Program-made: the position numbers and the translations under genes
Notes under the pieces: model-generated
What the model was told of the DNA's origin: nothing
Databases searched by the model: none
What the model saw: the letters and a program-made list of their open reading frames with translations, nothing else
Part shown: positions 36 through 44,462 of the stretch, in pieces
Layout: every line of letters starts with the position of its first letter
Numbering within the stretch: the stretch's first letter is position 1
Sequence record: MW331437.1
Reading direction: 5' to 3' (one strand)
Source of the DNA: Escherichia phage phiWAO78-1
Length of the DNA: 44,551 nt

Positions 36-65
36 TGTACATCCCGCCCAATCCCCTTATATAAT
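36..65 (+). promoter_or_regulatory. Candidate sigma70-type promoter for the packaging/structural operon (TGTACA-N18-TATAAT)
   Basis: Consensus -10 TATAAT at 60-65, weak -35 TGTACA at 36-41, 18-nt spacer; about 65 nt upstream of TerS start. Confidence 0.35.
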
Positions 66-3718: not shown

Positions 3719-3958
3719 TCAGAAGTGCCTGACTGGTTGTTTAAACTTCCAGTCACAATCTACATGTTTAATAGCACCTTTCGCAACAAGACTGTCTATA
3801 AATTCCGGCCCTGAATTTGTCTTGTACCATGTGTATCTGTTGCCGACTTTTACGTTTGGGAGGCTGTGGTACACAACATCACCAACCACCATAAAAGAAA
3901 CACCGATAGCCCCTTTTTCTGCATAAAGTTTTTTAGCAATACCCCTCATGTATAACAT
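3719..3958 (-). CDS. Hypothetical protein (accessory cassette A)
   Basis: 79 aa ORF on opposite strand to the flanking structural genes, second gene behind promoter element A. Confidence 0.4.
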   Translation of the reverse strand: MLYMRGIAKKLYAEKGAIGVSFMVVGDVVYHSLPNVKVGNRYTWYKTNSGPEFIDSLVAKGAIKHVDCDWKFKQPVRHF

Positions 3959-3969: not shown

Positions 3970-4164
3970 TTAGTAAGGTAAGGCCTTGCGAATTGTATAC
4001 CCATATCCGAGGTAGCCGTTTTCCTCTTGCATAGCGGAGGCACGCAGCAGAGCAGCATTCTCGCCTTTTACTACAGCTACCACATAATCCGTAGAGTCTG
4101 GGCCGTTTTCTACAACTCCATACGCCTGTACGTTCTTGGTGGTAAGTTCATATGTGTTAGTCAT
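3970..4164 (-). CDS. Hypothetical protein (accessory cassette A)
   Basis: 64 aa ORF; ATG 4164 preceded by AGGAA SD and the conserved promoter element A. Confidence 0.45.
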   Translation of the reverse strand: MTNTYELTTKNVQAYGVVENGPDSTDYVVAVVKGENAALLRASAMQEENGYLGYGYTIRKALPY

Positions 4165-4195
4165 TTCTAAATTCCTTATCTCTCGTTTCGATAAC

Positions 4196-4228
4196 TGAAT
4201 AGTACCCTATTATATTGGGGTCTGCAAA
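4196..4228 (-). promoter_or_regulatory. Class-1 conserved promoter-like element, copy A (TTGCAG-N17-TACTAT with AATAG-N4-CTATT dyad)
   Basis: 33-bp element shared with copies at 6082, 15681, 37611, 39002; about 35 nt upstream of the minus-strand ATG at 4164. Confidence 0.6.
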
Positions 4229-5777: not shown

Positions 5778-5805
5778 CTGAGGCCCCGAAAGGGGCCTCA
5801 GTTTT
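5778..5805. terminator. Bidirectional rho-independent terminator (CTGAGGCCCC-GAAA-GGGGCCTCAG)
   Basis: 10-bp perfect GC-rich stem with T-runs on both strands, between convergent genes ending at 5776 and 5804. Confidence 0.75.
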
Positions 5806-6055
5806 AATACCCAGTCTCTTGGGTTAAGTTAATCTCTTTATTCCAGACGTTTCGGTCATACTTTTCACGAATCTGGCGCATACTTCTGCCGACCGCGGCG
5901 GATAGAGACGTATCCCCATCTTCTTGCGCGTCCAATTGAATCCGCCGAAGCCCAATATACGCCGAAATATCGCCGCGTAATTCGGCCTGTTCATACTCTT
6001 TTTTAAGAAAAGAACCAAGGTCCTGTACACGATGTTTTGCTGGTTTCGTAATCAT
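5804..6055 (-). CDS. Hypothetical protein (accessory cassette B)
   Basis: 83 aa ORF; ATG 6055 with GAGGAGAG SD about 25 nt downstream of conserved promoter element B. Confidence 0.45.
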   Translation of the reverse strand: MITKPAKHRVQDLGSFLKKEYEQAELRGDISAYIGLRRIQLDAQEDGDTSLSAAVGRSMRQIREKYDRNVWNKEINLTQETGY

Positions 6056-6081
6056 TTCTTCTCTCCTCTTGTTGGTGTGAA

Positions 6082-6114
6082 TGAATAGTACCCTATTATA
6101 TTGGGGTGTGCAAA
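6082..6114 (-). promoter_or_regulatory. Class-1 conserved promoter-like element, copy B
   Basis: TTTGCACACCCCAATATAATAGGGTACTATTCA on the minus strand; the best match to the family consensus. Confidence 0.6.
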
Positions 6115-6432: not shown

Positions 6433-6819
6433 ATGAATCTTAAAGCAACTGTCGTAGCGGGGGCGTGTTTCATCATCCTGGCTTACGCACACGGCCTCTA
6501 CCAGTATCGCATCGGCTGGAATGAAGGCCGGGCGAATCTCGTTTCGCAGCAACAGCAGAAAGCACAGGCTGAGTTAGCGAAGAAAACACAACGGCAGCAG
6601 CAGGACGAATCGAAGGCCGCCGCCGCTGACAACGAAGGCAAGACGAAATCAGAGGTAATTACCCGTGAAGTCGTTAAGTACATTAAAACGCCTGGCCGCA
6701 GCGTGTGCACTTTTGACCCTGAGCGCGTGCGGCTCAAGTCCCGCGCCGTCGCAAACGCCAATTCCATCCCCGGATACGACGATGATGCAGCCGCCGTGCA
6801 AACTGGCACCGCCAAGTAG
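6433..6819 (+). CDS. i-spanin (Rz-like inner-membrane spanin component)
   Basis: N-terminal transmembrane segment VVAGACFIILAYA followed by Q/K/A-rich coiled-coil-like region; a lipoprotein ORF overlaps in the +1 frame. Confidence 0.6.
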   Translation: MNLKATVVAGACFIILAYAHGLYQYRIGWNEGRANLVSQQQQKAQAELAKKTQRQQQDESKAAAADNEGKTKSEVITREVVKYIKTPGRSVCTFDPERVRLKSRAVANANSIPGYDDDAAAVQTGTAK

Positions 6820-6928
6820 CGACGCTGACGAGGATTTAGCTATCGACGTTCAGAATGCCGAATGTGCACGGCAACTGAGACTGAAAGTGTTCATGTTGCA
6901 GGATTACGTGAGGAATATTCTGGAATAG
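6665..6928 (+). CDS. o-spanin (Rz1-like outer-membrane lipoprotein), overlapping the i-spanin gene in another frame
   Basis: Lipoprotein signal MKSLSTLKRLAAACALLTLSAC with lipobox LSAC; Pro-rich mature part; GTG start with GAGGT SD 8 nt upstream; begins inside 6433-6819 and extends past it. Confidence 0.6.
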   Translation: MKSLSTLKRLAAACALLTLSACGSSPAPSQTPIPSPDTTMMQPPCKLAPPSSDADEDLAIDVQNAECARQLRLKVFMLQDYVRNILE

Positions 6929-15653: not shown

Positions 15654-15680
15654 TTTAAACCCCTTCGTTGTCGGTGTAAG

Positions 15681-15713
15681 TGAATAGTACCCTATTATAT
15701 TGGGGCGCGCAAG
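15681..15713 (-). promoter_or_regulatory. Class-1 conserved promoter-like element, copy C
   Basis: CTTGCGCGCCCCAATATAATAGGGTACTATTCA on the minus strand, about 30 nt upstream of ATG 15653. Confidence 0.6.
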
Positions 15714-33596: not shown

Positions 33597-34118
33597 TTAT
33601 TCTTCTTCGAAATACTTGTTCTTGATTGCTGTCAGGCGTTCCAGATATTCAGCCAGGTCTTCGTCTTTAATCGCGGCAATCTTCATCTTCTTACCGGTGA
33701 ACTCTTCCAGCAGTTCATCGGAATCATCACACGCGGCGTCGCTCGGACCTTCGTTAATCGCGTCGTCGATAGCCTGAATCTGGTCACGCAGAGACTTATA
33801 GTCTACTTCTTCTTTCTCTTCTTCCGGCTCTGGAGCAGGCTCCTCTACTTTAGCTTTACGCGGCTTGCGTTTCGGCTTCTCTTCTTCTGCCGGTTTAGTG
33901 TCAACGATGTCTTCGCCCTCGACTGGGAGTTCTTTCGCTTTCTCGACTTCTTCAAGTGCTTTAGCCAGTTCTTTTTTAACTGTTTCTACCCCCGTGACCG
34001 CGACGTCAACGGTTAATTCACCTACTGATTTGCCGTTTTGCGGTTTCACGCTATTCGCAGCAATCAGTTCATGCGCAACTACGAAACGTTCCAGTAATAC
34101 TAAGAATTTCTCTAACAT
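33597..34118 (-). CDS. Highly acidic early protein (hypothetical; possible DNA mimic)
   Basis: 173 aa, very Glu/Asp-rich with one basic patch; first gene downstream of strong promoter G. Confidence 0.45.
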   Translation of the reverse strand: MLEKFLVLLERFVVAHELIAANSVKPQNGKSVGELTVDVAVTGVETVKKELAKALEEVEKAKELPVEGEDIVDTKPAEEEKPKRKPRKAKVEEPAPEPEEEKEEVDYKSLRDQIQAIDDAINEGPSDAACDDSDELLEEFTGKKMKIAAIKDEDLAEYLERLTAIKNKYFEEE

Positions 34119-34149
34119 TTGTTTCTCTCCTCTCGTTTGGTATGGGTTA

Positions 34150-34179
34150 ACTATAATAGCTAACTATTCAGGATGTCAA
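34150..34179 (-). promoter_or_regulatory. Class-2 promoter G: TTGACA-N18-TATAGT with AATAG-N4-CTATT dyad in the spacer
   Basis: Consensus -35 and near-consensus -10 on the minus strand; divergent from the XRE-type regulator gene. Confidence 0.6.
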
Positions 34180-34243
34180 CGGGCTTTTCTAAAATAATTA
34201 ATATGGTACTATTCACATATCAACTGACTAAGGAGTAACTGAC

Positions 34244-34459
34244 ATGCAACCATCTGAACTAGGCATCCGTGTAGAGCAACGCCGTAAAGAACTCGGCATC
34301 TCCCAGCGCCGTCTGGCAGTCCTGACCGGCGTTTCCCAGGGCGCAATTAACCAGCTGGCACTTGGGGTAACTCAGGACGTCCGCCCGGCGACGCTGTTTA
34401 AACTGGCGGAAGTGCTGCAAGTAGACGCGAAGTGGCTGGCGCTAGGTGAAGGGGCTTAA
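34244..34459 (+). CDS. XRE-family helix-turn-helix transcriptional regulator (Cro/CI-like)
   Basis: 71 aa; ISQRRLAVLTGVSQGAINQL is a classic XRE-type HTH; AAGGAG SD; divergently transcribed from the early operon. Confidence 0.7.
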   Translation: MQPSELGIRVEQRRKELGISQRRLAVLTGVSQGAINQLALGVTQDVRPATLFKLAEVLQVDAKWLALGEGA

Positions 34460-34476
34460 TGCCCCTTTCTTTTTAC

Positions 34477-36717
34477 CTATTCCAAATCATCCTCTGTCAC
34501 CACCAGCATTTCATTCGGTTCGTATATTGTCTTTGGCCTCAATCTGTCGCCCATCTTTTCAGGTATCCGGTATGTGCCTGGTATAACTTCACCGTTAACA
34601 TCGCACCCGAGCATCAACTCACCGTCTTTCAGCATCTTCTCAAGATGGTGGTTGGTGATGGCGTGGTCCCCCGAGTTCGCCACTATCTGCCGTTGGGTAA
34701 AACCTCGTCCGGTGTCGTCGGACTGTTGCAGGTCTTCCAGCGCGGCGAGTATTGATTCCTTACGCCCTTCATCCTTCCCGCGTTTTACAGCATTCTTTAC
34801 GTTTTCTTTACCTTCTTTAGTTAACCCTTCTTCCCGCTCCTTCTCCTCGTCAGTTTTGAACGGCTCGAAGCCCCACGGCATCAGCACAAGCGCCTTGTGC
34901 GGCTCAGGCAGATCGAGGTTTACGATTGTGCCGTATTCCTCTGTGCAGCCGAGGAACTCAACAGCGCGATACTCTTTCGGCGGCGGAGCCTCACGGAACT
35001 GTACCGACTCCAGCACCATGCCAACCGTTTTCTGTTGAGGCCCGTGCTTAAATTTAGAGTGGTATACGTTTATCTGGCGGTCGGTCGCACGCTCAATTGT
35101 TAGCTCCACGTCGACACCCGCATACAGTGCCCCACTACCTCGGGCTTTCTTTCCACCCTTCGGAGTATGGTGGACAACACCCACCGCGGCTTTGGTTGCA
35201 TCACGCACTTCTTTCAGGATGGCAATGACTTTACCCATGCCGATTGCCGTCGATGAACTGTTCTCGTCGAACTTATCAATCGTCAGGGCCAGCGTCTGGT
35301 TAAGGGTGTCGAAGGCAACCATGCCAATTGGCTCGTCGCCTGCGGTTTCGCGCATTAGCTTAATAAGGCTTTTCAGTTTTCCAACTTCACCCATGTCGAT
35401 AACATGTACATAATCTTTACCTTCCTCGCCGTATTTAGCCGCGAGTGCGTCGATACGGGTGCGTGTAGCTGCGCCCCCCTCACCGTCAATATAGAAATGG
35501 TGGCAACGCTGGGTGTCGGCCCCGGCAAACCGGTATCCGGCAGCACTAAGGTACATCATACCCAGCGTATAGAATGATTTGTACGTGCCAGATTCCCCGA
35601 CGATGCCCCAGATACAATCCGATGGCATGTACCCTTCAACGACGAAATCAGCCTTTACCGGTTCTGGTAGCTCGTCCTCCTCTGGGTCATCGTCGTCTTC
35701 CAGGTCGTCGAGGCTGCATGAAACAGATTCACGCGCACCCCAGCCGATAGCCTCTGCGACTTCACTGAACGGCAGGCCAGTCGCATCGCACGCATATTTC
35801 CACACCTCTTTCGGCGACATACCTTCGGTTGCCATAATGTCGGTGTCGTGAATCATGGTTACGTTCGGCGCTTCATATCCTTCACGCGGGAAACACAGCA
35901 GGAAGTCGTCCGGACGCGGCGTCGGGTCGCTGTAGTTTTCTGCATGCTCTGGTGTGGCTGGCATCTTAAGGCCGCGTGGTGTCATAACACCGCCGTACTC
36001 GAACGCCAGTGCCTCAAACGCATCAGTAAACGCAGTGCGCAGTTCTTCCGGTATCTGGTAATCCGATGCGCTGCTCACCTCATAATCCGGTACGCCTTCC
36101 AGTAACTCGTCCGGGTCAATCAGGTCGTTGCGGCGCGACCAGATAACGGTAGAGCCTACCGGTGGCAGGTACATCGGTTGTGACAGAGTGAACCCGCTGC
36201 GGTCGGCGCCCATGCCTTTGAAGAAGTGCTCCAGCAATCCATGACGAACACGAATGATGTCACCGCCCTCAACCGTTCGGGCCAGCGGCATGACGACGCG
36301 AAAGCGCGGGGCTTCGTCTGTGTGTGATGCCGTGGTATAGAGGCACATCGCCCGCCGGCTGCGCTTAACCAGGCGCACAGCTTCCTGATACTCTTCCAGG
36401 GTTGCACTGTCAAAGTCCAGGTACGCCAGCGACGATTTGCTTACAGACGCGTCGCAGCGATAGAAAAAGCCTTTACGCGCTTGCTTAAAGTCACCTGTTT
36501 CCGGGTCTTTTACGGTGCTGTGCGTAGAGTCGCACGCGGCGGTGATGTAGCCAGGCGCGGTCTTCGAGTTAATCCCGTCACGGACGGCATCGAGCGGCTG
36601 GATTAAATCTTTCAGGTCGTCCAGTGTTGCCGTGTGTGTCGTTCTGACGTTTATATCCTTTTTCTCCGCCCTCGCGTTGCGACGGGACCACGAGTAGGAT
36701 AAAATCACATCGGACAT
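34477..36717 (-). CDS. DNA primase/helicase (RecA-like P-loop ATPase with N-terminal primase-like region)
   Basis: 746 aa; Walker A GIVGESGTYKS and downstream RecA-fold features in the central domain; size and context of phage primase-helicases. Confidence 0.7.
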   Translation of the reverse strand: MSDVILSYSWSRRNARAEKKDINVRTTHTATLDDLKDLIQPLDAVRDGINSKTAPGYITAACDSTHSTVKDPETGDFKQARKGFFYRCDASVSKSSLAYLDFDSATLEEYQEAVRLVKRSRRAMCLYTTASHTDEAPRFRVVMPLARTVEGGDIIRVRHGLLEHFFKGMGADRSGFTLSQPMYLPPVGSTVIWSRRNDLIDPDELLEGVPDYEVSSASDYQIPEELRTAFTDAFEALAFEYGGVMTPRGLKMPATPEHAENYSDPTPRPDDFLLCFPREGYEAPNVTMIHDTDIMATEGMSPKEVWKYACDATGLPFSEVAEAIGWGARESVSCSLDDLEDDDDPEEDELPEPVKADFVVEGYMPSDCIWGIVGESGTYKSFYTLGMMYLSAAGYRFAGADTQRCHHFYIDGEGGAATRTRIDALAAKYGEEGKDYVHVIDMGEVGKLKSLIKLMRETAGDEPIGMVAFDTLNQTLALTIDKFDENSSSTAIGMGKVIAILKEVRDATKAAVGVVHHTPKGGKKARGSGALYAGVDVELTIERATDRQINVYHSKFKHGPQQKTVGMVLESVQFREAPPPKEYRAVEFLGCTEEYGTIVNLDLPEPHKALVLMPWGFEPFKTDEEKEREEGLTKEGKENVKNAVKRGKDEGRKESILAALEDLQQSDDTGRGFTQRQIVANSGDHAITNHHLEKMLKDGELMLGCDVNGEVIPGTYRIPEKMGDRLRPKTIYEPNEMLVVTEDDLE

Positions 36718-37208: not shown

Positions 37209-37237
37209 AGTATACATTGCGAATAGTGGGAAATCAA
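37209..37237 (-). promoter_or_regulatory. Candidate sigma70 promoter TTGATT-N17-TATACT for the AlpA-like gene
   Basis: Hexamers at optimal spacing on the minus strand; spacer contains a GAATAG half-site. Confidence 0.4.
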
Positions 37238-37517
37238 ACATAATTGCACCTATTGACATTATGAAAATCTTCGTTTAAGGTGCTTCTATATCTTAGTTAC
37301 TTTGATTCTTGTTCACCTTGTAAAACCCGCCGAAAACGAGCGCTCAACGCGAAGTGTTAGGCGGCAGTTTACTGAACATGAGAATTATCGTAACTTTCCT
37401 TCCTAAGTATCTCCGGTTGCCCTGGGCAAGCTCTATTCTCATCGGCAGCATACCTCTTAAGTATCTGATTTTCTTAATGTGCCGTAGATTCGCAACCGTA
37501 AAAATGTAACGATTATC

Positions 37518-37541
37518 GGGCAGGCTTAATGCCTGCCCTTT
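37518..37541 (+). terminator. Terminator-like hairpin (GGGCAGGC-TTAAT-GCCTGCCC + TTT)
   Basis: 8-bp perfect stem in a roughly 450-bp region without convincing ORFs. Confidence 0.35.
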
Positions 37542-37610
37542 AGTTACCAAGTAATAAGAATAAAGGCACGACCCTCCCTAAAGAATCACAACGGCAACGT
37601 AACTATTCTC

Positions 37611-37673: not shown

Positions 37674-37865
37674 ATGTTTAAGAAGGGTCAGTTGGTTAAA
37701 TGCGCCGACGGTAAACACGGTGTGATTGAATTAAAATCTGCTTTATTTCCGGGAGAGTACGTAGTTACTGTGCAAAAGGTGAGAGGAGTAAATTCGGTGG
37801 TATACGTAGCGGAAGAGAATTTAAAACTAATCGGCAACAATTTTAAATTCAAAGGGGAGAAGTGA
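37674..37865 (+). CDS. Hypothetical small protein
   Basis: ATG 37674 with GAGGAGTGAGGG SD (ORF open from GTG 37665). Confidence 0.4.
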   Translation: MFKKGQLVKCADGKHGVIELKSALFPGEYVVTVQKVRGVNSVVYVAEENLKLIGNNFKFKGEK

Positions 37866-38104
37866 TGCAAATCATAATTACAGATAACACAGTTTCCTAC
37901 GAAAAAGATGACGACGATACTTTGGAGAGCATAGGCGTAAATATCGGTGATGTTTTCGATGTCCTTGGTATCGTATCAGGCAGCTGGTGGATTAAGGTCG
38001 GTCGCTACAAAGTTCCGGTAAGCAAGGCAGAAGCGAAAATATTCTCAACGGCATCGAATCATGATGCTCGTGCCGACGACTCTGAGGGAGGTTGCCGTGA
38101 ATAA
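37862..38104 (+). CDS. Hypothetical small protein
   Basis: 80 aa; ATGA overlap with upstream gene. Confidence 0.4.
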   Translation: MMQIIITDNTVSYEKDDDDTLESIGVNIGDVFDVLGIVSGSWWIKVGRYKVPVSKAEAKIFSTASNHDARADDSEGGCRE

Positions 38105-38164
38105 TTACCTGTTTATTTTAATTGTCAGCGCCGTTTGTGTGGTGCACGCGTTGTGGGGGCTGGT

Positions 38165-38356
38165 ATGAGAATTCGTATAACCAAGATAAATGGCTTTCTA
38201 CCACTGCCTTACGGTGACTATCCTCTTTACCACTTTGGGGTATGCGTTGGGCAGGAGTTCGATACTATCGGCGAAAACGAGTATGGCTTTGTCGTAGAAC
38301 ATGACGGAGAGCCGCTATTCATTAGACGCAGTGAATGTGAAGTTCTGGAGGACTAA
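38165..38356 (+). CDS. Hypothetical small protein
   Basis: ATG 38165 (ORF open from 38135). Confidence 0.35.
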   Translation: MRIRITKINGFLPLPYGDYPLYHFGVCVGQEFDTIGENEYGFVVEHDGEPLFIRRSECEVLED

Positions 38357-38359
38357 GTT

Positions 38360-38503
38360 ATGAGAGAAGCATTTGAACGGTGGGCTGTCGTCGAGGGTCT
38401 GCCGGTTAACAAGGGTTCGAAGAAAGAGTACCTGAACGTTAAGACGCGTCTCGCGTGGCGGGCGTGGAAAGCTGGTGTTCGAACTGCGATGAGTAAGAGG
38501 TGA
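38360..38503 (+). CDS. Hypothetical small basic protein (47 aa)
   Basis: GGAGGA SD before ATG 38360; below ORF-track cutoff. Confidence 0.3.
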   Translation: MREAFERWAVVEGLPVNKGSKKEYLNVKTRLAWRAWKAGVRTAMSKR

Positions 38504-38506
38504 GAT

Positions 38507-38701
38507 GTGTGTGAGTGGGTTAAGTGTAGTGAGCGGATGCCAGATGACTTTGAAGATGTACTGGTTTCAGATGGGGGTAACGTTGAGGTGATGTGGTGGG
38601 ATTGCGATGGCTTCTGGGATTGTTGGGCACCGCGTAACTCAAATATCAGTAGTGACGATGTGACTCACTGGATGTCGTTACCTGAGCCGCCGGAAGTGTG
38701 A
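38507..38701 (+). CDS. Small Trp/Cys-rich protein, possibly DUF551-like
   Basis: MPDDFEDVLV...VTHWMSLPEPP pattern resembles DUF551 phage proteins (from memory); GTG start. Confidence 0.35.
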   Translation: MCEWVKCSERMPDDFEDVLVSDGGNVEVMWWDCDGFWDCWAPRNSNISSDDVTHWMSLPEPPEV

Positions 38702-38825
38702 TGTTCAATAGTTTGTGATTTTACTGAGTGACTTACGCTGCTACACAGCAGCGTATCATTTTTCTCATTTTTGTTCTATTTCACCAAACGCAACCATCGA
38801 AGCGACTATTGCAGGAGATGCAACA

Positions 38826-38996
38826 ATGAAACTGAATGACATCGTAACCTGGACCGGTAGAAACGGAGAAAAGCGATTCGGGCTTATTGTTGCATCAAAC
38901 GGCAACAAGTACCGTGTTATGCGATGGCGTCAGTGGGCACGACGCCAGAGGTACTACTGGATTCGCAGTGAACGTTTATCTTTAAAACACCAATAA
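38826..38996 (+). CDS. Hypothetical small protein (56 aa)
   Basis: ATG 38826 with AGGAGA SD (ORF open from 38715). Confidence 0.35.
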   Translation: MKLNDIVTWTGRNGEKRFGLIVASNGNKYRVMRWRQWARRQRYYWIRSERLSLKHQ

Positions 38997-39001
38997 AATT
39001 T

Positions 39002-39034
39002 CTTGCCACTGGGATAGAATAGGCTACTATTCAT
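39002..39034 (+). promoter_or_regulatory. Class-1 conserved promoter-like element, copy E (diverged)
   Basis: CTTGCCACTGGGATAGAATAGGCTACTATTCAT keeps TTGCC, the AATAG-N4-CTATT dyad and TACTATTCA; 27 nt upstream of ATG 39062. Confidence 0.45.
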
Positions 39035-39061
39035 TTACACAGACGAGAGGAGAGACAGAGG

Positions 39062-39199
39062 ATGAAATACGAAATTTTAGACGTAACTAAATTAGCCGAG
39101 AATTACGCAATATATGGCTTGGCTGTTGTTTGTGACGGGGGTGCAAAGCGTGCCTACACTGCGGGCACTGAGGAGCCAGAAGATGTTCCTGGAATGTAA
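39062..39199 (+). CDS. Hypothetical small protein (45 aa)
   Basis: GAGAGGAGAGA SD; below ORF-track cutoff. Confidence 0.3.
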   Translation: MKYEILDVTKLAENYAIYGLAVVCDGGAKRAYTAGTEEPEDVPGM

Positions 39200-39393
39200 A
39201 TCCTACGAGGGCTATTGGGTGCTGACTAAAAACGACCTGTACCACCTCAAAGAAGACGGCGACGAGAGCCGCTGCTAAGTAATAGACGACAACGGCACTG
39301 AACTTGATGTCTATTACACCGGGTATGGTCGGTGGGCGCTATCTGCGGACGATGACTTTGTGTTTGAAGAATATAACGGGGAGGAGTCAGAAG

Positions 39394-39930
39394 ATGAGTA
39401 ACAAAAACGAAGTATTCGAGTACCTGATTGACCAACTACGGCAGCAGGTAAATAAGAAAGATGTCACATCTTTCAATGTGTCTGTACAGATATCCGACCT
39501 TGATGAGGTCAAGCAGGTAATCCACAACCTACAGCAGCATATCGCTGGTAGGGACGACGAAATACGTGTGCTGAAAGACACCCTACGGCAGCGGGTAAAT
39601 AACAACCAGTGCGAAGACCTGGCCCATGAGGTGTTGTCACTTAAGAACCAGTTACGTGATGCTTCGGCGCAGATTAAGGAGTTGCATCTGGCGTTGGTCA
39701 AAGCTGTGGGTGACAGGGAGGCGTACAAACTTATCCGCAAACAGGAGCAATCTGGTTGCTGTAAAGAAGATACTCAGGAATGCCACCATAACTGGCGATT
39801 CGTTAACGGAAAGGCTCCCGCCGTATGTATTAATTGCGGCGTGACCAAAACTGAGGAGTGTGGACACGTGTGGGAATATTATTACCCAAACGGCCGGCGT
39901 TGTACCAAATGCGGGGCGATAAACTTATGA
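39394..39930 (+). CDS. Coiled-coil protein with C-terminal Cys4 zinc-ribbon-like cluster
   Basis: ATG 39394 with GGGGAGGAG SD; C-terminus CINCGV...CTKCG. Confidence 0.45.
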   Translation: MSNKNEVFEYLIDQLRQQVNKKDVTSFNVSVQISDLDEVKQVIHNLQQHIAGRDDEIRVLKDTLRQRVNNNQCEDLAHEVLSLKNQLRDASAQIKELHLALVKAVGDREAYKLIRKQEQSGCCKEDTQECHHNWRFVNGKAPAVCINCGVTKTEECGHVWEYYYPNGRRCTKCGAINL

Positions 39931-40130
39931 CCAGCATCTTATTTATCTGGGTACTAAGTGTGGGCCAGATGCAACTAGCGGCATCAGAAACGTTTTACTC
40001 GATGGAGGCGTGCCAGTCAGCGGCACGCGCCGCAGAGAACGCGCACTTCCTGTTTCAGGGTGACAAGCCCAACGATTCAGAGGTACGCGCTATCTGCTCA
40101 CCTAAGCGACTTGGTAAACAGGAGAAGTGA
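39927..40130 (+). CDS. Small protein with N-terminal signal/TM segment
   Basis: ATGA overlap with upstream gene; hydrophobic N-terminus SILFIWVLSVG. Confidence 0.35.
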   Translation: MTSILFIWVLSVGQMQLAASETFYSMEACQSAARAAENAHFLFQGDKPNDSEVRAICSPKRLGKQEK

Positions 40131-40132
40131 TT

Positions 40133-40426
40133 ATGGTACAGAGATATGAGTTAAAAGAAGACTGTGTTACCGGGCATATTGACTTAGAGGAAGATGCCGG
40201 CGGTGATTGGGTTGGCTATGAAGATTACGTAAAACTTGAAGCTGAACTTAGTGGACTTAAAGAGTGGCGGGCGCAGGTAATAGACGTTGCCTTAAAAGCG
40301 TCCGAGGAAGCACGCACCACGATAGCTAATCTCGAAGCCGAGTTACAGAAATACAAAGACCAGTTCCCGGATTACATCGAGTGCGCGAACTGTGGGTCAA
40401 TTACACATGTGGAAGGGGTGGAGTGA
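40133..40426 (+). CDS. Hypothetical protein
   Basis: ATG 40133 (ORF open from 40127). Confidence 0.4.
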   Translation: MVQRYELKEDCVTGHIDLEEDAGGDWVGYEDYVKLEAELSGLKEWRAQVIDVALKASEEARTTIANLEAELQKYKDQFPDYIECANCGSITHVEGVE

Positions 40427-40719
40427 TGTCGTTAGCAACTGACATCCTGAAACGAAGCGGCCTTGCGCCGCTGTCACCGAGAGCTAAAACACAGATATAC
40501 AAACGTCAGGGTAATGCGCTGTTCCCCGAGATTCAGGCCAGACGCAAAGCGGTCCGCGCCTGTGGATTCCAGAACGGGAAGGCCGTGAATCTCGGTGAGT
40601 TCAAAACGCAGGAACGCGCGGCTATCGCTAATCGGTTATTTAATTACTGGAAATCGCTGGGTTATGAAGATATTCCGACGAAACCACAGAGACGACAATA
40701 CATCTGGCGCCATAAATAA
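40426..40719 (+). CDS. Hypothetical protein
   Basis: ATG 40426 overlapping upstream stop (GTGATG). Confidence 0.35.
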   Translation: MSLATDILKRSGLAPLSPRAKTQIYKRQGNALFPEIQARRKAVRACGFQNGKAVNLGEFKTQERAAIANRLFNYWKSLGYEDIPTKPQRRQYIWRHK

Positions 40720-40794
40720 ACCGTTATTAGGATAATTCCTACCCGTGGTATCCTCCAGTTACTGCATACTTAATACGCACCTGGAGGATTCATC

Positions 40795-41103
40795 TTGGAT
40801 AAATTTACTGAAACAGTGACAGGCTGGCTTCTCGCAGCCGCACTCGCCGGAGGAGTCATCGGACTACGACAACATAAGTCCGTCATTTCCGGCCCTATCG
40901 ACGGCTTCTGCTTTATTGCAACCGGCTTCACTTGCGCCGTATTTGGTGCGCCTCTTGCCGCTCAATGGTTCGGTATCACAGGCGACCGTGAAATCGCGGG
41001 CCTCGGATTCATCATCGCTATTCTCTGGATGCCTATCTATTCCCGCCTCTCCGGTATCGTCGCCGGGGAATACATCGCACGTCGAGGAGGCCCAGATGAA
41101 TGA
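40795..41103 (+). CDS. Holin-like membrane protein (putative)
   Basis: 102 aa with several hydrophobic segments, first gene of a three-gene cassette ending in endolysin. Confidence 0.5.
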   Translation: MDKFTETVTGWLLAAALAGGVIGLRQHKSVISGPIDGFCFIATGFTCAVFGAPLAAQWFGITGDREIAGLGFIIAILWMPIYSRLSGIVAGEYIARRGGPDE

Positions 41104-41368
41104 GTTATTCTGGTTCGGCGGTATGCTGGCAATAGGAGGCACATCGCTGTTTAATGTATATCATCCCAGCGTGGACGACGGATTATTTGGCCGGGTGCTC
41201 TATATCCTGACTGCTATTGTCTGCGCTGCCGGGTGTATCCACATGTTACAGGGCAGCATGTCACCGACGTTGCCCGAGACATTAATCACATTAGTCGCGC
41301 TGCGCCAGATTCGTCAGGCGTGGCTATCGTACGGAGGACATAAGCGTGTCTCGAAACATTTCAGATAA
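41096..41368 (+). CDS. Second holin/antiholin-like membrane protein (putative)
   Basis: GGAGG SD; hydrophobic segments FWFGGMLAIGG and VLYILTAIVCAAG; overlaps both neighbours. Confidence 0.4.
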   Translation: MNELFWFGGMLAIGGTSLFNVYHPSVDDGLFGRVLYILTAIVCAAGCIHMLQGSMSPTLPETLITLVALRQIRQAWLSYGGHKRVSKHFR

Positions 41369-41831
41369 TGGATTGCATTTTACCGCTGCGTTCGAGGGAT
41401 TCCGTGGAACCGCGTATCGCGCTACACCTTCGGAAAAATACTTAACCATAGGCTACGGAAGCTACGGCCCTCATGTGTATGAAGGACAGAAGATTACGAA
41501 GAGGCAAGGCCTCCTGTTGCTGAATCGCGATATGGCTAAGGCCGTAGCTGCGGTTGATGCAGCGGCGCACCATTCACTGACACAGGCGCAGTTCGACGCA
41601 GTGTGCGACCTGGTCTATAACGCGGGTACTGGCGTGGTAGCAGCTACTACTGGCACGGGTAAGGCGCTGCGTTCCGGCGATATTGCGACGCTGCGGGCTA
41701 AGCTGGCTCTGTTCATCAACCAGAACGGCAAACCGTTACTTGGTCTACGCCGCCGTACTGCTGGGCGCCTGGCGCTGTTCGACGGTAAACCGTGGCAGGA
41801 GGCTGAGGCTATCGGGAGGGCCATTAAATAA
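41346..41831 (+). CDS. Endolysin, GH24 lysozyme-like (T4 lysozyme family)
   Basis: N-terminal catalytic pattern EGFRGTAYRATPSEKYLTIGYG matches the E...D/T...TIGxG lysozyme signature. Confidence 0.8.
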   Translation: MSRNISDNGLHFTAAFEGFRGTAYRATPSEKYLTIGYGSYGPHVYEGQKITKRQGLLLLNRDMAKAVAAVDAAAHHSLTQAQFDAVCDLVYNAGTGVVAATTGTGKALRSGDIATLRAKLALFINQNGKPLLGLRRRTAGRLALFDGKPWQEAEAIGRAIK

Positions 41832-42044
41832 TGGACGAATATGAAGGCGTTTAGTATTCTGGTTAGGCCAAGTTTTTCGTATTTGCTAATGGAGGCCAAT
41901 ATGGCATTGCAAGAGTTCACTAACCCTGTTAAATCTCGTGATGATATCGACGAGTCTATTGGTTACGGCGAAGGTTGACACCTAAGAGTGATCCGACGAT
42001 ACTTAAATTACCTCCTGTTCCATCCCTCTGCTCTCCAGTTTTAT

Positions 42045-42074
42045 CCCGGCCCTGACCCAGCCGGGATTTTTTTT
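42045..42074 (+). terminator. Strong rho-independent terminator (CCCGGC-loop-GCCGGG + T8)
   Basis: 6-bp GC stem followed by eight consecutive T residues. Confidence 0.75.
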
Positions 42075-42159
42075 ATCTATTTTCTGCAATGACTAGTTGA
42101 CTATTACTCTGACACCAATTATATTTACTCCATCGACAACGAGAACGGAGTAGGCAGAA

Positions 42160-42348
42160 ATGATGACTAAGATTAAGCACACCGATAATTGGGGCGATTT
42201 CCTGGAGATAGATAAGTGCAGGGACGGGTCATTACTTATAACTTGTACCGACGGTGATAGCGACGAATCAGGTAATGTTAATATGAGCCTGGATGATTTT
42301 ATGACTATTGTTGAGCAGGTTCTGGCGTTTTATGGAGATGTTAAATGA
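42160..42348 (+). CDS. Hypothetical small acidic protein
   Basis: 62 aa ORF after terminator. Confidence 0.4.
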   Translation: MMTKIKHTDNWGDFLEIDKCRDGSLLITCTDGDSDESGNVNMSLDDFMTIVEQVLAFYGDVK

Positions 42349-42494
42349 AAATCACAGATATCGAAGCATTCAAAGACGCGCAACTGATGGCACGCATTGC
42401 CGTTAGTCACCTGGGTGGAAGCATTCCTGCGGATTCGTTCTGGGCAGCAGCGGTGAAGGCACTGAAAGCAGCTTATGCAGGAGAGAAGAAATGA
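42345..42494 (+). CDS. Hypothetical small protein (49 aa)
   Basis: ATGA overlaps with neighbours; below ORF-track cutoff. Confidence 0.3.
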   Translation: MKITDIEAFKDAQLMARIAVSHLGGSIPADSFWAAAVKALKAAYAGEKK

Positions 42495-42700
42495 ACAATG
42501 TTACTGTCGGCGGAATCTATATGAGTGATTACTCGTGGGAGGGAGAGGGTGGCGCCAGATTCATCGTAACTGCGGTTGGGTTGGACCACGTGCTTATTGC
42601 AGACCTCCCATTGATAAAATTCAATGAATCCTATTTGGAATATTGTGTTGGCCGAAAGGAGTTCGAGGCTAAATTTAAGTTTGCAGGAGAGAATAAATGA
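42491..42700 (+). CDS. Hypothetical small protein
   Basis: 69 aa ORF, translationally coupled. Confidence 0.4.
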   Translation: MNNVTVGGIYMSDYSWEGEGGARFIVTAVGLDHVLIADLPLIKFNESYLEYCVGRKEFEAKFKFAGENK

Positions 42701-42894
42701 AAGTTAAAGCCGCTAAAATTCTCTGGTTAGCCGCCCTTGACTATGTGACAGAGGGTAAAGTGTATGATGTATACAACCCGACAGCTACTGGTTTCGGTTA
42801 TATAGACTCCGACGACGACTGCCATATTTTCATAGACTTTGGTAACGATGATGGTGATGGTTTCCATGGCGTTAAATGGGAGGTTGTAGAATGA
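42697..42894 (+). CDS. Hypothetical small protein
   Basis: 65 aa ORF, translationally coupled. Confidence 0.4.
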   Translation: MKVKAAKILWLAALDYVTEGKVYDVYNPTATGFGYIDSDDDCHIFIDFGNDDGDGFHGVKWEVVE

Positions 42895-43049
42895 GCGAAC
42901 AAGGTCCAGCAAGCCAACCATTACGGGTAGGCCGTAAGGTAAGTCACACCCCGTTCCCGACACGCGAGGAACTGATGAAACGTAACAGTTTCCCGGGGCC
43001 GGACAAGAACAAGTATCTCAATCGCATGTGGGGAGAGCGCAAAGAATGA
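42891..43049 (+). CDS. Hypothetical small protein (52 aa)
   Basis: ATGA overlaps at both ends. Confidence 0.3.
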   Translation: MSEQGPASQPLRVGRKVSHTPFPTREELMKRNSFPGPDKNKYLNRMWGERKE

Positions 43050-43228
43050 AAGTAAAATGTGTGTTGCTTAAGGGTGATTGGGTTGAGTTTACACTAAACG
43101 GGGTGTACGAAGCCGTCGCGCTACCGAGTTATGGGTACCTAGTTGGAGACTTCTACCTCAATAACTCTCTTGAGGTTGAAGGCTACGAAAGTGAGTGCGT
43201 ATTTGAGGCGGTGAACAATGACCAATAA
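43046..43228 (+). CDS. Hypothetical small protein
   Basis: ATG 43046 (ORF open from 43028). Confidence 0.35.
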   Translation: MKVKCVLLKGDWVEFTLNGVYEAVALPSYGYLVGDFYLNNSLEVEGYESECVFEAVNNDQ

Positions 43229-43391
43229 CGAATACGAGAAACTTAGCGTAGGAGCGGCGACCGGTGAATCTGAAATAGCGTGGATTGACGCCAACATCGA
43301 GCACTACCTACGGCAAGTAGACATCCTTATGGAACGCCGCCGTGAATTGATTAACCGCTTCAACCTGAACAAAGGTGACGCCAATGCCTAA
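43218..43391 (+). CDS. Hypothetical small protein (57 aa)
   Basis: Hand-translated; overlaps neighbours. Confidence 0.3.
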   Translation: MTNNEYEKLSVGAATGESEIAWIDANIEHYLRQVDILMERRRELINRFNLNKGDANA

Positions 43392-43623
43392 AATCACAAT
43401 CGCATCACTCGAGCGCCGTATTCTGGTGCTTGAGTCGGAGAAACAGACGTTGGGCGGGCAACTGTCAATTAATGGTGAGTTTCAACTGGAGGCGTTTAAG
43501 TTGTTGCTTGATAAGTTGAAAGAGGGTGAAAAGCCTTGTGCGCATGACTACTACATACGTGTTGGTGGCGGGTCCCGACATATCACATGCCTGAAATGCG
43601 GTAAAACGTATGGGGGCACCTGA
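43384..43623 (+). CDS. Small protein with C-terminal zinc-ribbon-like Cys/His cluster
   Basis: CAHDYYIRVGGGSRHITCLKCG at C-terminus. Confidence 0.4.
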   Translation: MPKITIASLERRILVLESEKQTLGGQLSINGEFQLEAFKLLLDKLKEGEKPCAHDYYIRVGGGSRHITCLKCGKTYGGT

Positions 43624-43792
43624 ACCAGTAGTTATTGATGGCGTCCTGTGGAAACCCTACTCGGTTAACCACATCGACGCCGACGGGAAGAAGTTCAGCT
43701 TCTACATTTTTGCAATTAGCCGTGAGCACGCCGCTTGCGTGGTCGACGATATTCGAGAAACGGCGTGGCTCGGCGATGAGATAGGGGGGTAA
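43610..43792 (+). CDS. Hypothetical small protein
   Basis: 60 aa ORF. Confidence 0.3.
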   Translation: MGAPEPVVIDGVLWKPYSVNHIDADGKKFSFYIFAISREHAACVVDDIRETAWLGDEIGG

Positions 43793-43879
43793 GAGTATGA
43801 GTCTTGAGGTTGTTATTGGCCTGGTCGGTCTTAGTTACTTCATTGGGTTATTAGTTGGTTTTCTGTGGGGTAGATACTG

Positions 43880-44050
43880 ATGTTCGACAATATTGACGCG
43901 GCAATCGAAGAAGCAATCTGGCGTCGCTACAACGGCGAACAACAGCGACACTTCTGCCTTGTACAACGCGGTAACATGGTCGCCGTAGTGCAGGACCGCG
44001 ATAACAAATATCCGAATGCGATGTGGACAACGAGGAATTTCTTAGGATGA
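43880..44050 (+). CDS. Hypothetical small protein (56 aa)
   Basis: Hand-translated; ATGA overlap with downstream gene. Confidence 0.3.
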   Translation: MFDNIDAAIEEAIWRRYNGEQQRHFCLVQRGNMVAVVQDRDNKYPNAMWTTRNFLG

Positions 44051-44283
44051 TTACCAGCATTCCGAACCTGATTAAAGAATACGGCACGATGGCGGAGACA
44101 TGCCGACAAACCGGCATCAACGAAATGACGATTGCCAAGTACAGCAAAGACGTTGATTGTGAGCGACATGTAATTTATAACAACCGTCTGATGACGCACG
44201 TTAAGACAAGCCCGGTGTTATTCACGCGCCGAGGTATCACTAAAACAGAGCAACGTATCGCTAAAGAGGAGAGCGGGGAATGA
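44047..44283 (+). CDS. Small putative HTH DNA-binding protein
   Basis: ETCRQTGINEMTIAKYSKD resembles a helix-turn-helix. Confidence 0.35.
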   Translation: MITSIPNLIKEYGTMAETCRQTGINEMTIAKYSKDVDCERHVIYNNRLMTHVKTSPVLFTRRGITKTEQRIAKEESGE

Positions 44284-44462
44284 TTGAGATTTTGAAAGCT
44301 ACAAATGCCGTGGGCAACCTGGTGTTCTGGCTGGCGTTTCTCGTTGTGCTGATAAAACAACCGACTTTGTTTAACAGTCTTCCTCGCCATCTGTGGTGGC
44401 CTATGTTTTTAGGCATGGGTGTATCAGGAGTGGCAGGCATCCTGTTGTGGTTTTTCAAATGA
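44280..44462 (+). CDS. Small membrane protein
   Basis: 60 aa with two hydrophobic segments. Confidence 0.35.
   Translation: MIEILKATNAVGNLVFWLAFLVVLIKQPTLFNSLPRHLWWPMFLGMGVSGVAGILLWFFK

Follow-up and report, generated by a model that had tools for sequence, protein, structure and literature searches.

The small-gene array at 37674-44462 of Escherichia phage phiWAO78-1 (MW331437.1) is, with a probability of about 80%, an ordinary Kagunavirus siphophage right arm, a mosaic of small genes that host sigma-70 RNA polymerase would read as three or four transcription units. This reading draws on the genes observed in the window (the whole stretch of 44,551 nt), on their coding status and pattern of conservation, and on the conserved sequence signals. 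All features described lie on the plus strand.

Phage identity and coding status of the array

The window is the genome of a Kagunavirus (Guernseyvirinae), of which the array forms the standard right arm. The array region was matched by 414 phage records, the best of which were Kagunavirus genomes with 88-92% identity that covered only 60-68% of the region. In the annotated phages fBC-Eco01, Bas74, hz69 and Bas73, small genes are likewise followed by two holins, the endolysin, further small genes, NinH and terS, in this order.

An array of about 25 tightly coupled small ORFs, mostly of unknown function, had been proposed from the letters of the DNA (the sequence-only reading), and both points were borne out. 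ORFs of at least 45 aa spanned 93% of 37674-44462 on the plus strand and 43% on the minus strand, and 200 shuffles averaged 38% coverage and reached 57% at most. Gene calling yielded 26 ORFs and two doubtful short ones (g7b, 39183-39278; g15, 41841-41978) at a coding density of 89%; the four genes singled out in the sequence-only reading (38507-38701, 39394-39930, 43384-43623 and 44047-44283) were called at identical coordinates. Genes overlapped at 16 of 27 junctions, by 4 nt (ATGA) in nine cases, by 1 nt (TGATG) in three and by 8-23 nt in the others; these stop-start overlaps would couple translation along each unit. A PHROG or Pfam family was matched by 22 of the 28 ORFs, all except g7, g7b, g15, g16, g19 and g21, and at least 20 ORFs have no known function. 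Seven of the proteins (g2, g3, g5, g10, g16, g19 and g21) demonstrated a pI of 4.1-4.5.

It is extremely improbable that many of these reading frames are open by chance, in DNA that is non-coding or coded in another way. The six ORFs without a family match and the small size of g7b (31 aa) and g15 (45 aa) would fit such an artefact, but the coverage far exceeds the shuffle maximum, and dN/dS against relatives was 0.06-0.39 in the called frame of all 25 ORFs with usable pairs, including g7b and g15. Shine-Dalgarno sequences accompany the stop-start overlaps, and even for g21 there are six clusters of homologues, in which 27 columns are invariant.

Gene presence was determined over 55 related loci, and the counts below are out of 35 anchored loci for left-part genes and 37 for right-part genes. 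About 12 small genes were found at 80-97% identity across the genus, several of them across the subfamily (Kagunavirus-like and Jerseyvirus-like loci), under strong purifying selection; they look core or regulatory rather than arms-race cargo. About nine genes (g2, g7, g7b, g15, g16, g18, g19, g21 and g27) occupy slots that are empty or otherwise filled in relatives, the usual signature of accessory genes. Among 50,697 phage records, core genes occurred 458-550 times and accessory genes 0-38 times. Conservation profiling, recommended with the sequence-only reading, yielded in this way a backbone and a variable set; the accessory genes would have been dropped into recombination slots between backbone genes, two of which (AP2-like g11 and NinH-like g26) probably encode DNA-binding regulators.

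Promoter-like and terminator-like signals

The sequence-only reading had placed the array as one unit behind a single dedicated promoter. Instead, at least three promoter-like sites were found, terminator-like hairpins at 38734-38765 (T1) and 42043-42075 (T2) interrupt the array, and the three promoter-like, terminator-delimited units are kept in relatives. P1 (37611-37646; TTGCAC, 17 nt, TACTAT) lies upstream of g1, embedded in a conserved motif (...AATAGGATACTATTCACTTA). P2 (39003-39037; TTGCCA, 16 nt, TACTAT), an exact match to the motif, lies upstream of g7, and its location between g4 and g9 is kept in relatives. Both belong to a promoter-like element of about 35 bp that has six near-identical copies in the window, with none expected by chance, and two plus-strand copies occupy equivalent positions in 32 of the 55 related loci; the same repeated motif was reported in fBC-Eco01 (PMC9825357). 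P3 (42097-42125; TTGACT, 17 nt, TATATT) is sigma-70-like, with 10 of the 12 consensus positions matched. The pattern TTGACN-(16-18 nt)-TANANT was present in 35 of 47 loci, every one reading TTGACT...TATATT, and all 35 loci with P3 have a T-run about 30 nt upstream of it. Across the whole promoter scan, sites were no more frequent than in shuffles (9 vs 10.5), so the case for P1-P3 rests on repetition and conservation and not on match score.

The terminator scan placed T1, a hairpin with a T-run, 3' of g5 (fold energy -17.7 kcal/mol, z -4.7); a terminator-like hairpin occurs in the g4-g9 interval of 25 of 34 loci, and most of those printed share the stem TACGCTGCT. T2 (AUCCCGGC...GCCGGGAU, then U8) had a fold energy of -13.8 kcal/mol. 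T3 (13-38; AGCCCTC-TACG-GAGGGCT with a T-run), read directly from the sequence, lies ahead of terS, and a hairpin with a T-run was found between g26 and terS in 35 of 36 loci. The g26-terS distance of 399 nt is the same as in related loci, and the two ends of the window are therefore contiguous. The leader of terS contains a TATAAT box that lacks a good -35 element and precedes a hairpin.

If these predicted promoters and terminators are active, P1 would drive g1-g5 as far as T1 (unit A1), and P2 would drive g7-g11, two holins and the endolysin as far as T2 (unit A2), with g6 sitting apart between the two units. The near-consensus P3 would drive g16-g27 to T3 (unit B), across the window ends and directly upstream of terS. 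The small-gene units are probably expressed early. In Kagunavirus RNA-seq, the lysozyme and NinH genes were classed as 'middle' in a gene table that is not mappable onto this window, and only one of four early genes, an HTH-domain gene, is named (PMC12645636).

Genes upstream of the lysis cassette

The first gene, g1 (37674-37865; 63 aa), encodes a basic protein with divergent alleles (phrog_12538 at 4e-12) and was found in 27/35 loci at a median identity of 46% (dN/dS 0.22). The acidic g2 (37865-38104; 79 aa) is a chimeric accessory gene whose separate halves match two PHROGs; it was full length in only 5/35 loci (dN/dS 0.23). The acidic g3 (38165-38356; 63 aa; phrog_10916 at 2e-11) was present in 19/35 loci at 44% identity, and g4 (38360-38503; 47 aa; phrog_15836 at 3e-33), a Kagunavirus core gene for a very basic protein (pI 11), in 32/35 at 89% (dN/dS 0.27). 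The DUF551 call made earlier for g5 (38507-38701; 64 aa), a stand-alone, Trp-rich acidic protein, was confirmed by Pfam PF04448 (E 1.4e-13, 51.9 bits, cutoff 22). In Stx phages, DUF551 has been described as a portable domain at the C-terminus of Ea22 variant V2 (PMC10834534).

Between T1 and P2, g6 (38826-38996; 56 aa; phrog_9384 at 1e-15) encodes a very basic protein (pI 11.7) that was found in 7/35 anchored loci, plus Jerseyvirus-like loci at about 50% identity (dN/dS 0.14). The rare accessory ORF g7 (39062-39199; 45 aa) has a good Shine-Dalgarno sequence, yielded no match in the PHROG search, and was present in 1/35 anchored loci and three loci overall (dN/dS 0.33, 2 pairs). The doubtful g7b, with GAGGAG upstream, was present in 3/35 loci (dN/dS 0.14, 3 pairs); a 219-nt gene occupies its position in Bas74, and g7b resembles a truncated copy of that longer gene.

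Two zinc-ribbon-like proteins had been proposed, and g8 and g23 indeed have a conserved CxH...CxxCG motif in common. The 178-aa g8 (39394-39930; phrog_6094 at 4e-46) comprises a conserved N-terminus, a coiled coil and two CxHxW...CxxCG zinc-ribbon-like units. Structure prediction, also recommended earlier, yielded an AlphaFold model (pLDDT 74) with four helices and two beta-hairpin units, the latter at the CxH...CxxCG motif. The family has 1308 clusters at 90% identity, and the best 120 homologues, of 128-276 aa, carried 0-4 units with 138 distinct unit sequences; g8 belongs to a modular and highly diverse family of coiled-coil and zinc-ribbon proteins. Its modules are under purifying, not positive, selection (dN/dS 0.2-0.37). 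In unit B, g23 (43384-43623; 79 aa; phrog_9023 at 1.5e-36) has a coiled coil and one CxH...CxxCG zinc-ribbon-like unit, with C52, H54, C69 and C72 88-94% conserved, and matches g8 across the motif by BLASTP (E 0.003).

The core gene g9 (39927-40130; 67 aa; phrog_3766 at 4e-35) encodes a hydrophobic N-terminus, either a signal peptide or a membrane anchor, and two fully conserved cysteines, Cys29 and Cys57; 31/35 loci carry it at 97% identity, and it also occurs in Jerseyvirus-like loci (dN/dS 0.13). In relatives, g9 and g11 are separated by 3 to 792 nt, and here this variable slot holds g10 (40133-40426; 97 aa; phrog_29624), an acidic coiled-coil protein with a C-terminal CxxCG, whose conservation is confined to the C-terminal third.

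Lysis cassette

The middle of the array is a lysis cassette of two holins and an endolysin, which the sequence-only reading had missed. It is adjoined upstream by the core gene g11 (40426-40719), whose basic 97-aa product is a candidate AP2-like DNA-binding protein and a likely regulator. The holin g12 (40795-41103; 102 aa, TTG start; phrog_2359 'holin' at 4e-29) has at least two hydrophobic segments; its counterpart is annotated as a holin in Bas72-74 and fBC-Eco01, and as class II-like in relatives. The second holin, g13 (41096-41368; 90 aa; phrog_2508 'holin' at 3e-33), was present in 35/35 loci (dN/dS 0.06). The endolysin g14 (41346-41831; 161 aa), a phage lysozyme, matched PF00959 (E 2.3e-26; 93 bits, cutoff 22.3) and endolysin PHROGs. 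Of the small membrane or secreted proteins noted earlier in the array, two are thus holins; g9 and g27 also encode hydrophobic segments.

In the g12 leader, a predicted hairpin (40750-40790; -23.8 kcal/mol, z -2.5) pairs CCUCCAG with the CUGGAGG Shine-Dalgarno sequence and may thereby sequester it. The stem arms occurred in seven distinct versions over 28 loci, and the sole change was one substitution in one locus that kept a G-U pair; no covariation was detected among these versions. The lysis genes downstream of P2 would need a delay until late in infection, which speaks against the proposed units, and the candidate holin hairpin is a prediction.

Between the endolysin and T2, g15 (45 aa) is a doubtful or rare accessory ORF, present in 3/37 loci (dN/dS 0.18, 3 pairs), with no family match in Pfam or PHROG; other loci also have insertions at this position.

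Genes of unit B

Unit B alternates conserved and sporadic genes. The acidic accessory g16 (42163-42348; 61 aa; dN/dS 0.21), with no match in the PHROG search, was found in 3/37 loci and 19 of the 50,697 phage records. The core gene g17 (42345-42494; 49 aa; phrog_2180 at 5e-21) was found in 37/37 loci, Jerseyvirus-like ones included. The following gap to g20 is 397 nt here and 0 in 18 of 47 loci; it holds the accessory genes g18 (42491-42700; 69 aa; phrog_20019 at 2e-37; 1/37 loci and 20 phage records, among them the 121-kb phage Av-05) and g19 (42697-42894; 65 aa, acidic; 5/37 loci and 38 phage records), the latter without a match in the PHROG search. The core gene g20 (42891-43049; 52 aa) encodes a DUF2737 protein (PF10930, E 7.5e-10, 39 bits, cutoff 25).

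The acidic, nearly orphan g21 (43046-43228; 60 aa) is inserted between g20 and g22, where the gap is 0 or less in 32 of 46 loci. It had no PHROG or Pfam match and occurred in none of the 55 loci or the 50,697 phage records; its six homologous clusters were found in 5.8 billion proteins at 62-88% identity, and in one locus (L058) a homologue occupies a different slot. The core gene g22 (43218-43391; 57 aa), with divergent alleles, matches phrog_1402 at 2e-18 and the N-terminal part of phrog_268, and was found in 37/37 loci and 458 phage records. Two Kagunavirus core genes follow g23, namely g24 (43610-43792; 60 aa; phrog_10509 at 9e-34; 27/37 loci, 95% identity, dN/dS 0.08) and g25 (43880-44050; 56 aa; phrog_5407 at 2.5e-24; 23/37 loci, 91% identity, dN/dS 0.07).

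The putative HTH protein noted earlier, g26 (44047-44283; 78 aa), proved NinH-like, with a Fis-like HTH (phrog_268 at 1.7e-30; 35% identity to lambda NinH over 51 aa, E 3e-10; Pfam NinH 26 bits, under the cutoff of 29.8). It was present in 36/37 loci and is a likely DNA-binding regulator. The last gene, g27 (44280-44462; 60 aa; phrog_10956 at 4e-34), encodes an accessory membrane protein with two hydrophobic, predicted transmembrane segments and was found in 9/37 loci.

Possible roles of the small genes

A doubtful alternative is that g4, g9, g11, g17, g20 and g22-g26 chiefly control processes of the phage itself, namely late and lysis transcription and pre-packaging DNA transactions, with g11 and g26 regulating the lysis and structural operons. 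AP2-like g11 lies directly ahead of the holins and of an intergenic region that hardly varies, which is consistent with this, as is the NinH/Fis-like character of g26; lambda NinH binds and bends DNA (PMC7166090). The genes are kept across Kagunavirus-like and Jerseyvirus-like loci, and the terS leader fits an activator-dependent late promoter. However, lambda can do without its nin genes in the laboratory (nin5 deletion), the analysis identified no binding sites, and to our knowledge no late activator has been described in the Guernseyvirinae.

It is less likely still that most ORFs are early inhibitors of host defence or machinery, co-expressed right after injection. Small, often acidic proteins, variable slots with sporadic gene content, the highly diverse modular g8 and the host-type promoter-like elements directly upstream would suit such an island, and tools predicted small hypothetical ORFs of one Kagunavirus as anti-CRISPR candidates, without experimental validation (PMC12919940). 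Against it, three members are lysis genes, about 12 genes are conserved under strong purifying selection, and the g8 modules likewise lack positive selection. No ORF matched known host-takeover or defence-related families in Pfam, PHROGs or NCBIfam, and a PADLOC scan of ten ORFs yielded no match beyond coiled-coil noise. BASEL phenotyping reported that Kagunavirus isolates are highly sensitive to restriction-modification and that their sensitivity to Old varies (PMC11990801). Because of the missing family matches and the restriction-modification sensitivity of relatives, an anti-defence role is a possibility for a minority of genes.

For the mosaic right arm read as three or four transcription units, the accessory genes may modulate the host; this description is by analogy, because so many ORFs have no known function. 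The content of units A1 and A2 resembles the lambda exo-xis/ea early accessory region, with a DUF551 domain and a coiled-coil protein whose C-terminal modules can be swapped. The NinH-like and DUF2737 genes of unit B recall the lambda/P22 nin region, and g20 is common to lambdoid and Stx phages, being found in 550 phage records that include mEp043 and Stx-converting phages.

Coding status and kinship of the array

Plus-strand ORFs of 45 aa or longer take up 93% of 37674-44462, compared to 43% on the minus strand and a mean of 38% (maximum 57%) in shuffled controls (n = 200). Calling of ORFs by start codons with Shine-Dalgarno sequences gave 26 ORFs and two doubtful short ones, g7b and g15 (the ORFs are numbered g1 to g27 in order along the array). 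Overlaps were counted at 16 of the 27 junctions, nine of them ATGA, and a PHROG or Pfam family was matched by 22 of the 28 ORFs. When compared to homologues in 55 related phage loci, all 25 testable ORFs showed a dN/dS of 0.06-0.39 in the called frame. Coverage relative to the shuffles, family matches and dN/dS confirm that the packed small-ORF array is real and coding; the sequence-only reading had described it with accurate coordinates and with the ATGA overlaps that were counted here. Genes for tRNA were looked for and none was found, and the Rfam matches were all sub-threshold and fell on the hairpin that follows the endolysin gene.

A DNA search with a 6.95-kb query matched 414 phage records. 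The closest were E. coli Kagunavirus genomes (hz69, Bas72-74, fBC-Eco01 and others) with 88-92% DNA identity, the aligned share in any single genome being only 60-68% of the 6.95 kb. Synteny was observed with fBC-Eco01 (taxonomy line Guernseyvirinae; Kagunavirus), Bas73, Bas74 and hz69, and by DNA similarity and gene order the region is a Kagunavirus right arm. Measured over the joined window ends, g26 and terS lie 399 nt apart, as they do in related contigs in which both genes are contiguous. The 44.5-kb window, with terS at one end and the array at the other, appears to be an entire Kagunavirus (Guernseyvirinae) genome.

Published Kagunavirus right arms, such as those of hz69, Bas72-74, fBC-Eco01, Golestan and K1H, have the same gene order as the window, with a divergent control region followed by small genes, two holins, the endolysin, more small genes, NinH and terS. 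They also share with it the repeated promoter-like motif and the terminators. Unlike those arms, the window joins the rare slot fillers g16, g18 and g19 with the nearly orphan g21, and it has no counterpart of the 'HslV family peptidase' gene found in some relatives between g11 and the holin. More than 100 deposited Kagunavirus genomes contain the module, and almost every gene in it is annotated there as hypothetical. What the window carries is a mosaic form of this known module, an ordinary and already sequenced kind of phage genome arm whose combination of accessory genes is new, and the current view of phage genome organisation is unchanged by it.

Promoter- and terminator-like signals

An element of about 35 bp, TTGCAC-N17-TACTAT within ...CCCCAATATAATAGGGTACTATTCAYTTA, was present in six copies in the window, with 0 expected by chance. 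Two plus-strand copies are directed into the array, P1 (37611-37646) upstream of g1 and P2 (39003-39037) upstream of g7, and two plus-strand copies were found at equivalent positions in 32 of the 55 related loci. The same repeat was reported in fBC-Eco01 and ascribed to a phage RNA polymerase (PMC9825357). No RNA polymerase gene was seen among the window's large ORFs, as viewed without a family-library scan, and the hexamers and spacing of P1 and P2 would resemble those of a host sigma-70 promoter.

On the plus strand, 3' of g5, a stable hairpin with a T-run (T1, 38734-38765; z -4.7) was detected, and a terminator-like hairpin was found in the same interval in 25 of 34 loci, with the same stem in most of those printed. 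The endolysin gene is followed by a second plus-strand hairpin with U8 (T2, 42043-42075) and, about 30 nt past it, by the promoter-like sequence TTGACT-17-TATATT (P3, 42097-42125, plus strand); this T2-P3 pair is kept in 35 of 47 loci. The third hairpin with a T-run (T3, 13-38, plus strand) lies after g27 and ahead of terS, and 35 of 36 loci have an equivalent hairpin. Instead of the one dedicated promoter that had been proposed for the array, P1, P2 and P3 with T1, T2 and T3 were thus found to be conserved in relatives. The transcription units would be P1 with g1 to g5 and T1 (unit A1); g6; P2 with g7 to g11, the holins, the endolysin (and g15) and T2 (unit A2); and P3 with g16 to g27 and T3 (unit B). 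We infer that all of these promoter- and terminator-like signals are active. The promoter scan tool gave no overall excess of promoter-like sites, and the case for promoters therefore rests on repetition and conservation.

Further copies of the P1/P2-type element were located on the minus strand at 4175-4209, 6061-6095 and 15660-15694. These three leftward copies face small minus-strand ORFs inside the structural region (3970-4164 and 3719-3958; 5804-6055; and a block that extends from 15317 to 13259). A weaker plus-strand copy at about 34185-34215, in the 34118-34477 gap, is antisense to the helicase-primase gene. The four extra copies suggest that small accessory units scattered over the genome are co-regulated.

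Past T3, the terS leader (39-130) contains a TATAAT box at 58-63 for which no -35 element could be recognised, and a GC-rich hairpin (GACGCG-TAGGG-CGCGTC, about 74-90) lies between this box and terS. The leader looks like an activator-dependent or antitermination-type late promoter; to our knowledge, no late regulator has so far been identified in Guernseyvirinae. The accessible text of a Kagunavirus RNA-seq paper classes lysozyme and NinH as 'middle'; it names few phage genes, and no temporal class in that text could be mapped onto the window genes (PMC12645636).

Conserved backbone and variable slots

Four gene classes were obtained from presence and absence across the 55 loci. Conserved in both Kagunavirus-like and Jerseyvirus-like loci were g9, g11, g13, g14, g17, g20, g22 and g26, while g4, g12, g24 and g25 were conserved within Kagunavirus at 89-95% identity. 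Most loci carried g1, g3, g5, g8 and g10 as divergent alleles (about 45% identity). The rare genes, g2 (5/35 loci), g7 (1/35), g7b (3/35), g15 (3/37), g16 (3/37), g18 (1/37), g19 (5/37), g21 (0/37) and g27 (9/37), lie in discrete slots. For example, g20 follows g17 without a gap in 18 of 47 loci, and 397 nt holding g18 and g19 separate the two here; g22 likewise borders on g20 in 32 of 46 loci, and 169 nt holding g21 separate the two here. In a set of 50,697 phage records, g22 and g20, both core genes, were found in 458 and 550, and the accessory genes g19, g18, g16 and g21 in 38, 20, 19 and 0, respectively. Homologues of g21 formed only six clusters among 5.8 billion proteins, 62-88% identical, which indicates that g21 is a real but very rare gene; in one contig its homologue occupies a different slot.

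Kagunaviruses are frequent candidates in phage therapy and synthetic biology, and the unannotated small-gene arm holds about a third of their genes. The main value of the analysis is practical, in that the conserved backbone, with the likely regulators and the lysis genes, can be told apart from the exchangeable slots, which hold the most plausible candidates for host-specific functions. Together with the gene classes, the precise coordinates of the promoter- and terminator-like signals can guide deletion, screening and retention in phage engineering.

A 52%-identity homologue of g18 (42491-42700) was found in the 121-kb Escherichia phage Av-05, outside Guernseyvirinae, which suggests that g18 may have been exchanged between unrelated phage groups. 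The interval 37210-37580, from the leftward HTH gene to P1, is a further variable slot, found in only 12-17 of 37 loci that match the intergenic region; it contains a 68-aa minus-strand ORF (37344-37550), slightly better conserved than the plus-strand frames there, and a hairpin at 37518-37538.

Lysis genes

The genes in the middle of the array are a lysis cassette, which the sequence-only reading had overlooked. The plus-strand genes g12 (40795-41103) and g13 (41096-41368) encode hydrophobic segments and matched the holin PHROGs phrog_2359 (E 4e-29) and phrog_2508 (E 3e-33), and g14 (41346-41831, plus strand) matched Pfam Phage_lysozyme with 93 bits against a cutoff of 22.3. Transmembrane holins thus lie beside a muralytic endolysin, and the annotation of the relatives agrees (holin, holin, endolysin). 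As in the lambda S-R-Rz/Rz1 cassette, two holin-family membrane proteins are followed by an overlapping lysozyme-family endolysin. Unlike in lambda, the spanin pair is in the structural region (6433-6928), and the first holin has a TTG start and a predicted hairpin, which would sequester its Shine-Dalgarno sequence.

No ORF with the lipobox expected of a spanin was found in 37674-44462, and spanins are not adjacent to the endolysin. An Rz-like ORF of 128 aa with an N-terminal membrane segment was detected at 6433-6819 on the plus strand, overlapped out of frame by an Rz1-like ORF of 87 aa (6665-6928, plus strand), a Pro-rich lipoprotein whose lipobox reads LLTLSAC. Genes for lysis are therefore found in two separate genome regions, and the alternative that the phage has no spanins, with g9 or a basic peptide as a substitute, was rejected.

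The sequence between g11 and the first holin (40719-40795) was almost invariant in 28 related loci (7 distinct versions). In a hairpin predicted there, CCUCCAG pairs with the holin's Shine-Dalgarno sequence CUGGAGG, and this hairpin may act as a translational brake on lysis timing.

Zinc-ribbon-like proteins and other single genes

Two copies of the motif CxH...CxxCG are found in g8 and one in g23, and the two proteins share it in BLASTP (E 0.003). In g8, the ligand residues C130, H132, C145 and C148 show at least 90% conservation, and those of g23 88-94%. The AlphaFold model of g8 has four long helices followed by two beta-hairpin units (hairpins 134-145 and 160-170), with pLDDT averaging 69-83 per 10-residue block there. 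Two conserved metal-ligand pairs on beta-hairpin knuckles were thus found for g8 and g23, and zinc-ribbon-like, as both had been labelled from the sequence, is a fair description, with metal binding putative.

The family of g8 (39394-39930) comprises 1308 clusters at 90% identity, compared to 42 for g11. Its 120 best homologues range from 128 to 276 aa and carry 0-4 zinc units, with 138 distinct unit sequences. Entire modules differ between members: some have a 49-aa coiled-coil segment that others lack, further segments occur as insertions, and the zinc-ribbon units fall into several subtypes. Homologous modules had a dN/dS of 0.2-0.37, which does not support positive selection on g8 and points to module gain, loss and exchange as the source of its diversity. 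A BFVD structure search with g8 yielded nothing but uncharacterised proteins from the g8 family itself. The g8-g23 pair was the only one below E 0.01 in all-against-all BLASTP of the array ORFs, and the idea that g2, g3, g19 and g21 are paralogous small beta-rich proteins was not supported by that comparison.

The interpretation made from the sequence was partly supported overall: its zinc-ribbon-like, DUF551 and HTH calls held, and its one dedicated promoter did not. The DUF551-like call was borne out by g5, a stand-alone DUF551 protein (PF04448, profile 1-68 of 68) with 51.9 bits against a gathering threshold of 22. The HTH call was also upheld, g26 (44047-44283) being NinH-like (35% identity to lambda NinH over 51 aa, BLASTP E 3e-10; phrog_268, E 1.7e-30), though its score to Pfam NinH (PF06322) was 26.0 bits, just below the gathering score of 29.8. 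Binding and bending of DNA as a homodimer is known only for the lambda protein, which is Fis-like; the abstract on lambda NinH mentions no metal site (PMC7166090). In g26, C19, C38, H41 and H51 were invariant in 34 distinct NinH-like homologues and could form a metal site. A DUF2737 match (PF10930, 39 bits against a gathering threshold of 25) was obtained for g20, a family common to lambdoid and Stx phages. A hydrophobic N-terminus and two invariant cysteines were found in g9, and two predicted membrane segments in g27.

Upstream of the holins, g11 is a candidate small AP2-like protein and a likely regulator. It did not match the Pfam AP2 model at E up to 0.05, and its structure model gave nothing below E 0.26 against the PDB (Foldseek). 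PDB sequence searches with g5, g8, g11 and g26 gave nothing below E 0.03 and only coiled-coil noise. Overall, the most promising leads are the g8 family with its modular make-up, the candidate AP2-like protein g11 and the near-orphan gene g21, the first two being most worth an experiment.

Possible host-takeover and anti-defence functions

Host-takeover or anti-defence genes had been suggested for the array. No ORF matched a characterised takeover, anti-defence or defence family in Pfam or PHROGs, and none showed homology there to inhibitor families such as Ocr, ArdA, Gam, Acr and Tad. NCBIfam gave no significant match for the ten conserved ORFs scanned, and the sole PADLOC match among ten ORFs was that of g8 to JetC (E 0.0026), in a coiled coil. 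Anti-defence proteins often have no detectable homology, and the lack of library matches is weak evidence against such a role. In the BASEL phenotyping, Kagunavirus isolates were highly sensitive to restriction-modification and variably sensitive to Old (PMC11990801); this argues against an effective general anti-restriction function and leaves other targets open. No experimental or functional work on the array genes or on Bas70-76 was found in the literature, and a genome-reduction study used a Skatevirus, not a Guernseyvirinae phage (PMC9825161).

If the anti-defence reading is true, g8 and the genes in the variable slots are its most plausible subjects, rather than the entire array. In a bolder form, which we consider rather unlikely, g8 would be a modular counter-defence or host-targeting factor whose tandem zinc-ribbon units are shuffled between phages to track variable host targets, at least one of g16, g18, g19, g21 and g27 would be a new small inhibitor of E. 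coli defence, and the conserved slot boundaries would serve as a Guernseyvirinae cassette-exchange system for genes of this kind.

Likeness to the lambda nin and ea regions

Like the nin region of lambda and P22, unit B consists of short overlapping genes that include a NinH-like gene and a DUF2737 gene; some DUF2737 genes on the lambda/P22 side are annotated 'NinZ-like'. Unlike nin, which lies between the replication genes and Q, unit B comes after the lysis genes and directly before terS, and no homologues of NinB, NinG or Q were found in the array region. A role in integration or excision is not applicable here, since the window phage is virulent. Units A1 and A2 resemble the lambda exo-xis (ea) region in their small, putatively early accessory genes and the portable DUF551 domain.

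In Ea22, a conserved N-terminus and coiled coil are joined to C-terminal domains that can be swapped, among them, in variant V2 of Stx phages, the portable DUF551 (PMC10834534). The same design logic is seen in g8, a coiled-coil protein with swappable C-terminal modules; g8 did not match Pfam Ead_Ea22, and the likeness is one of architecture, any homology being putative. Unlike in Ea22, the variable modules of g8 are one to four tandem zinc-ribbon-like units, and DUF551 is encoded in the window by a separate 64-aa gene, g5.
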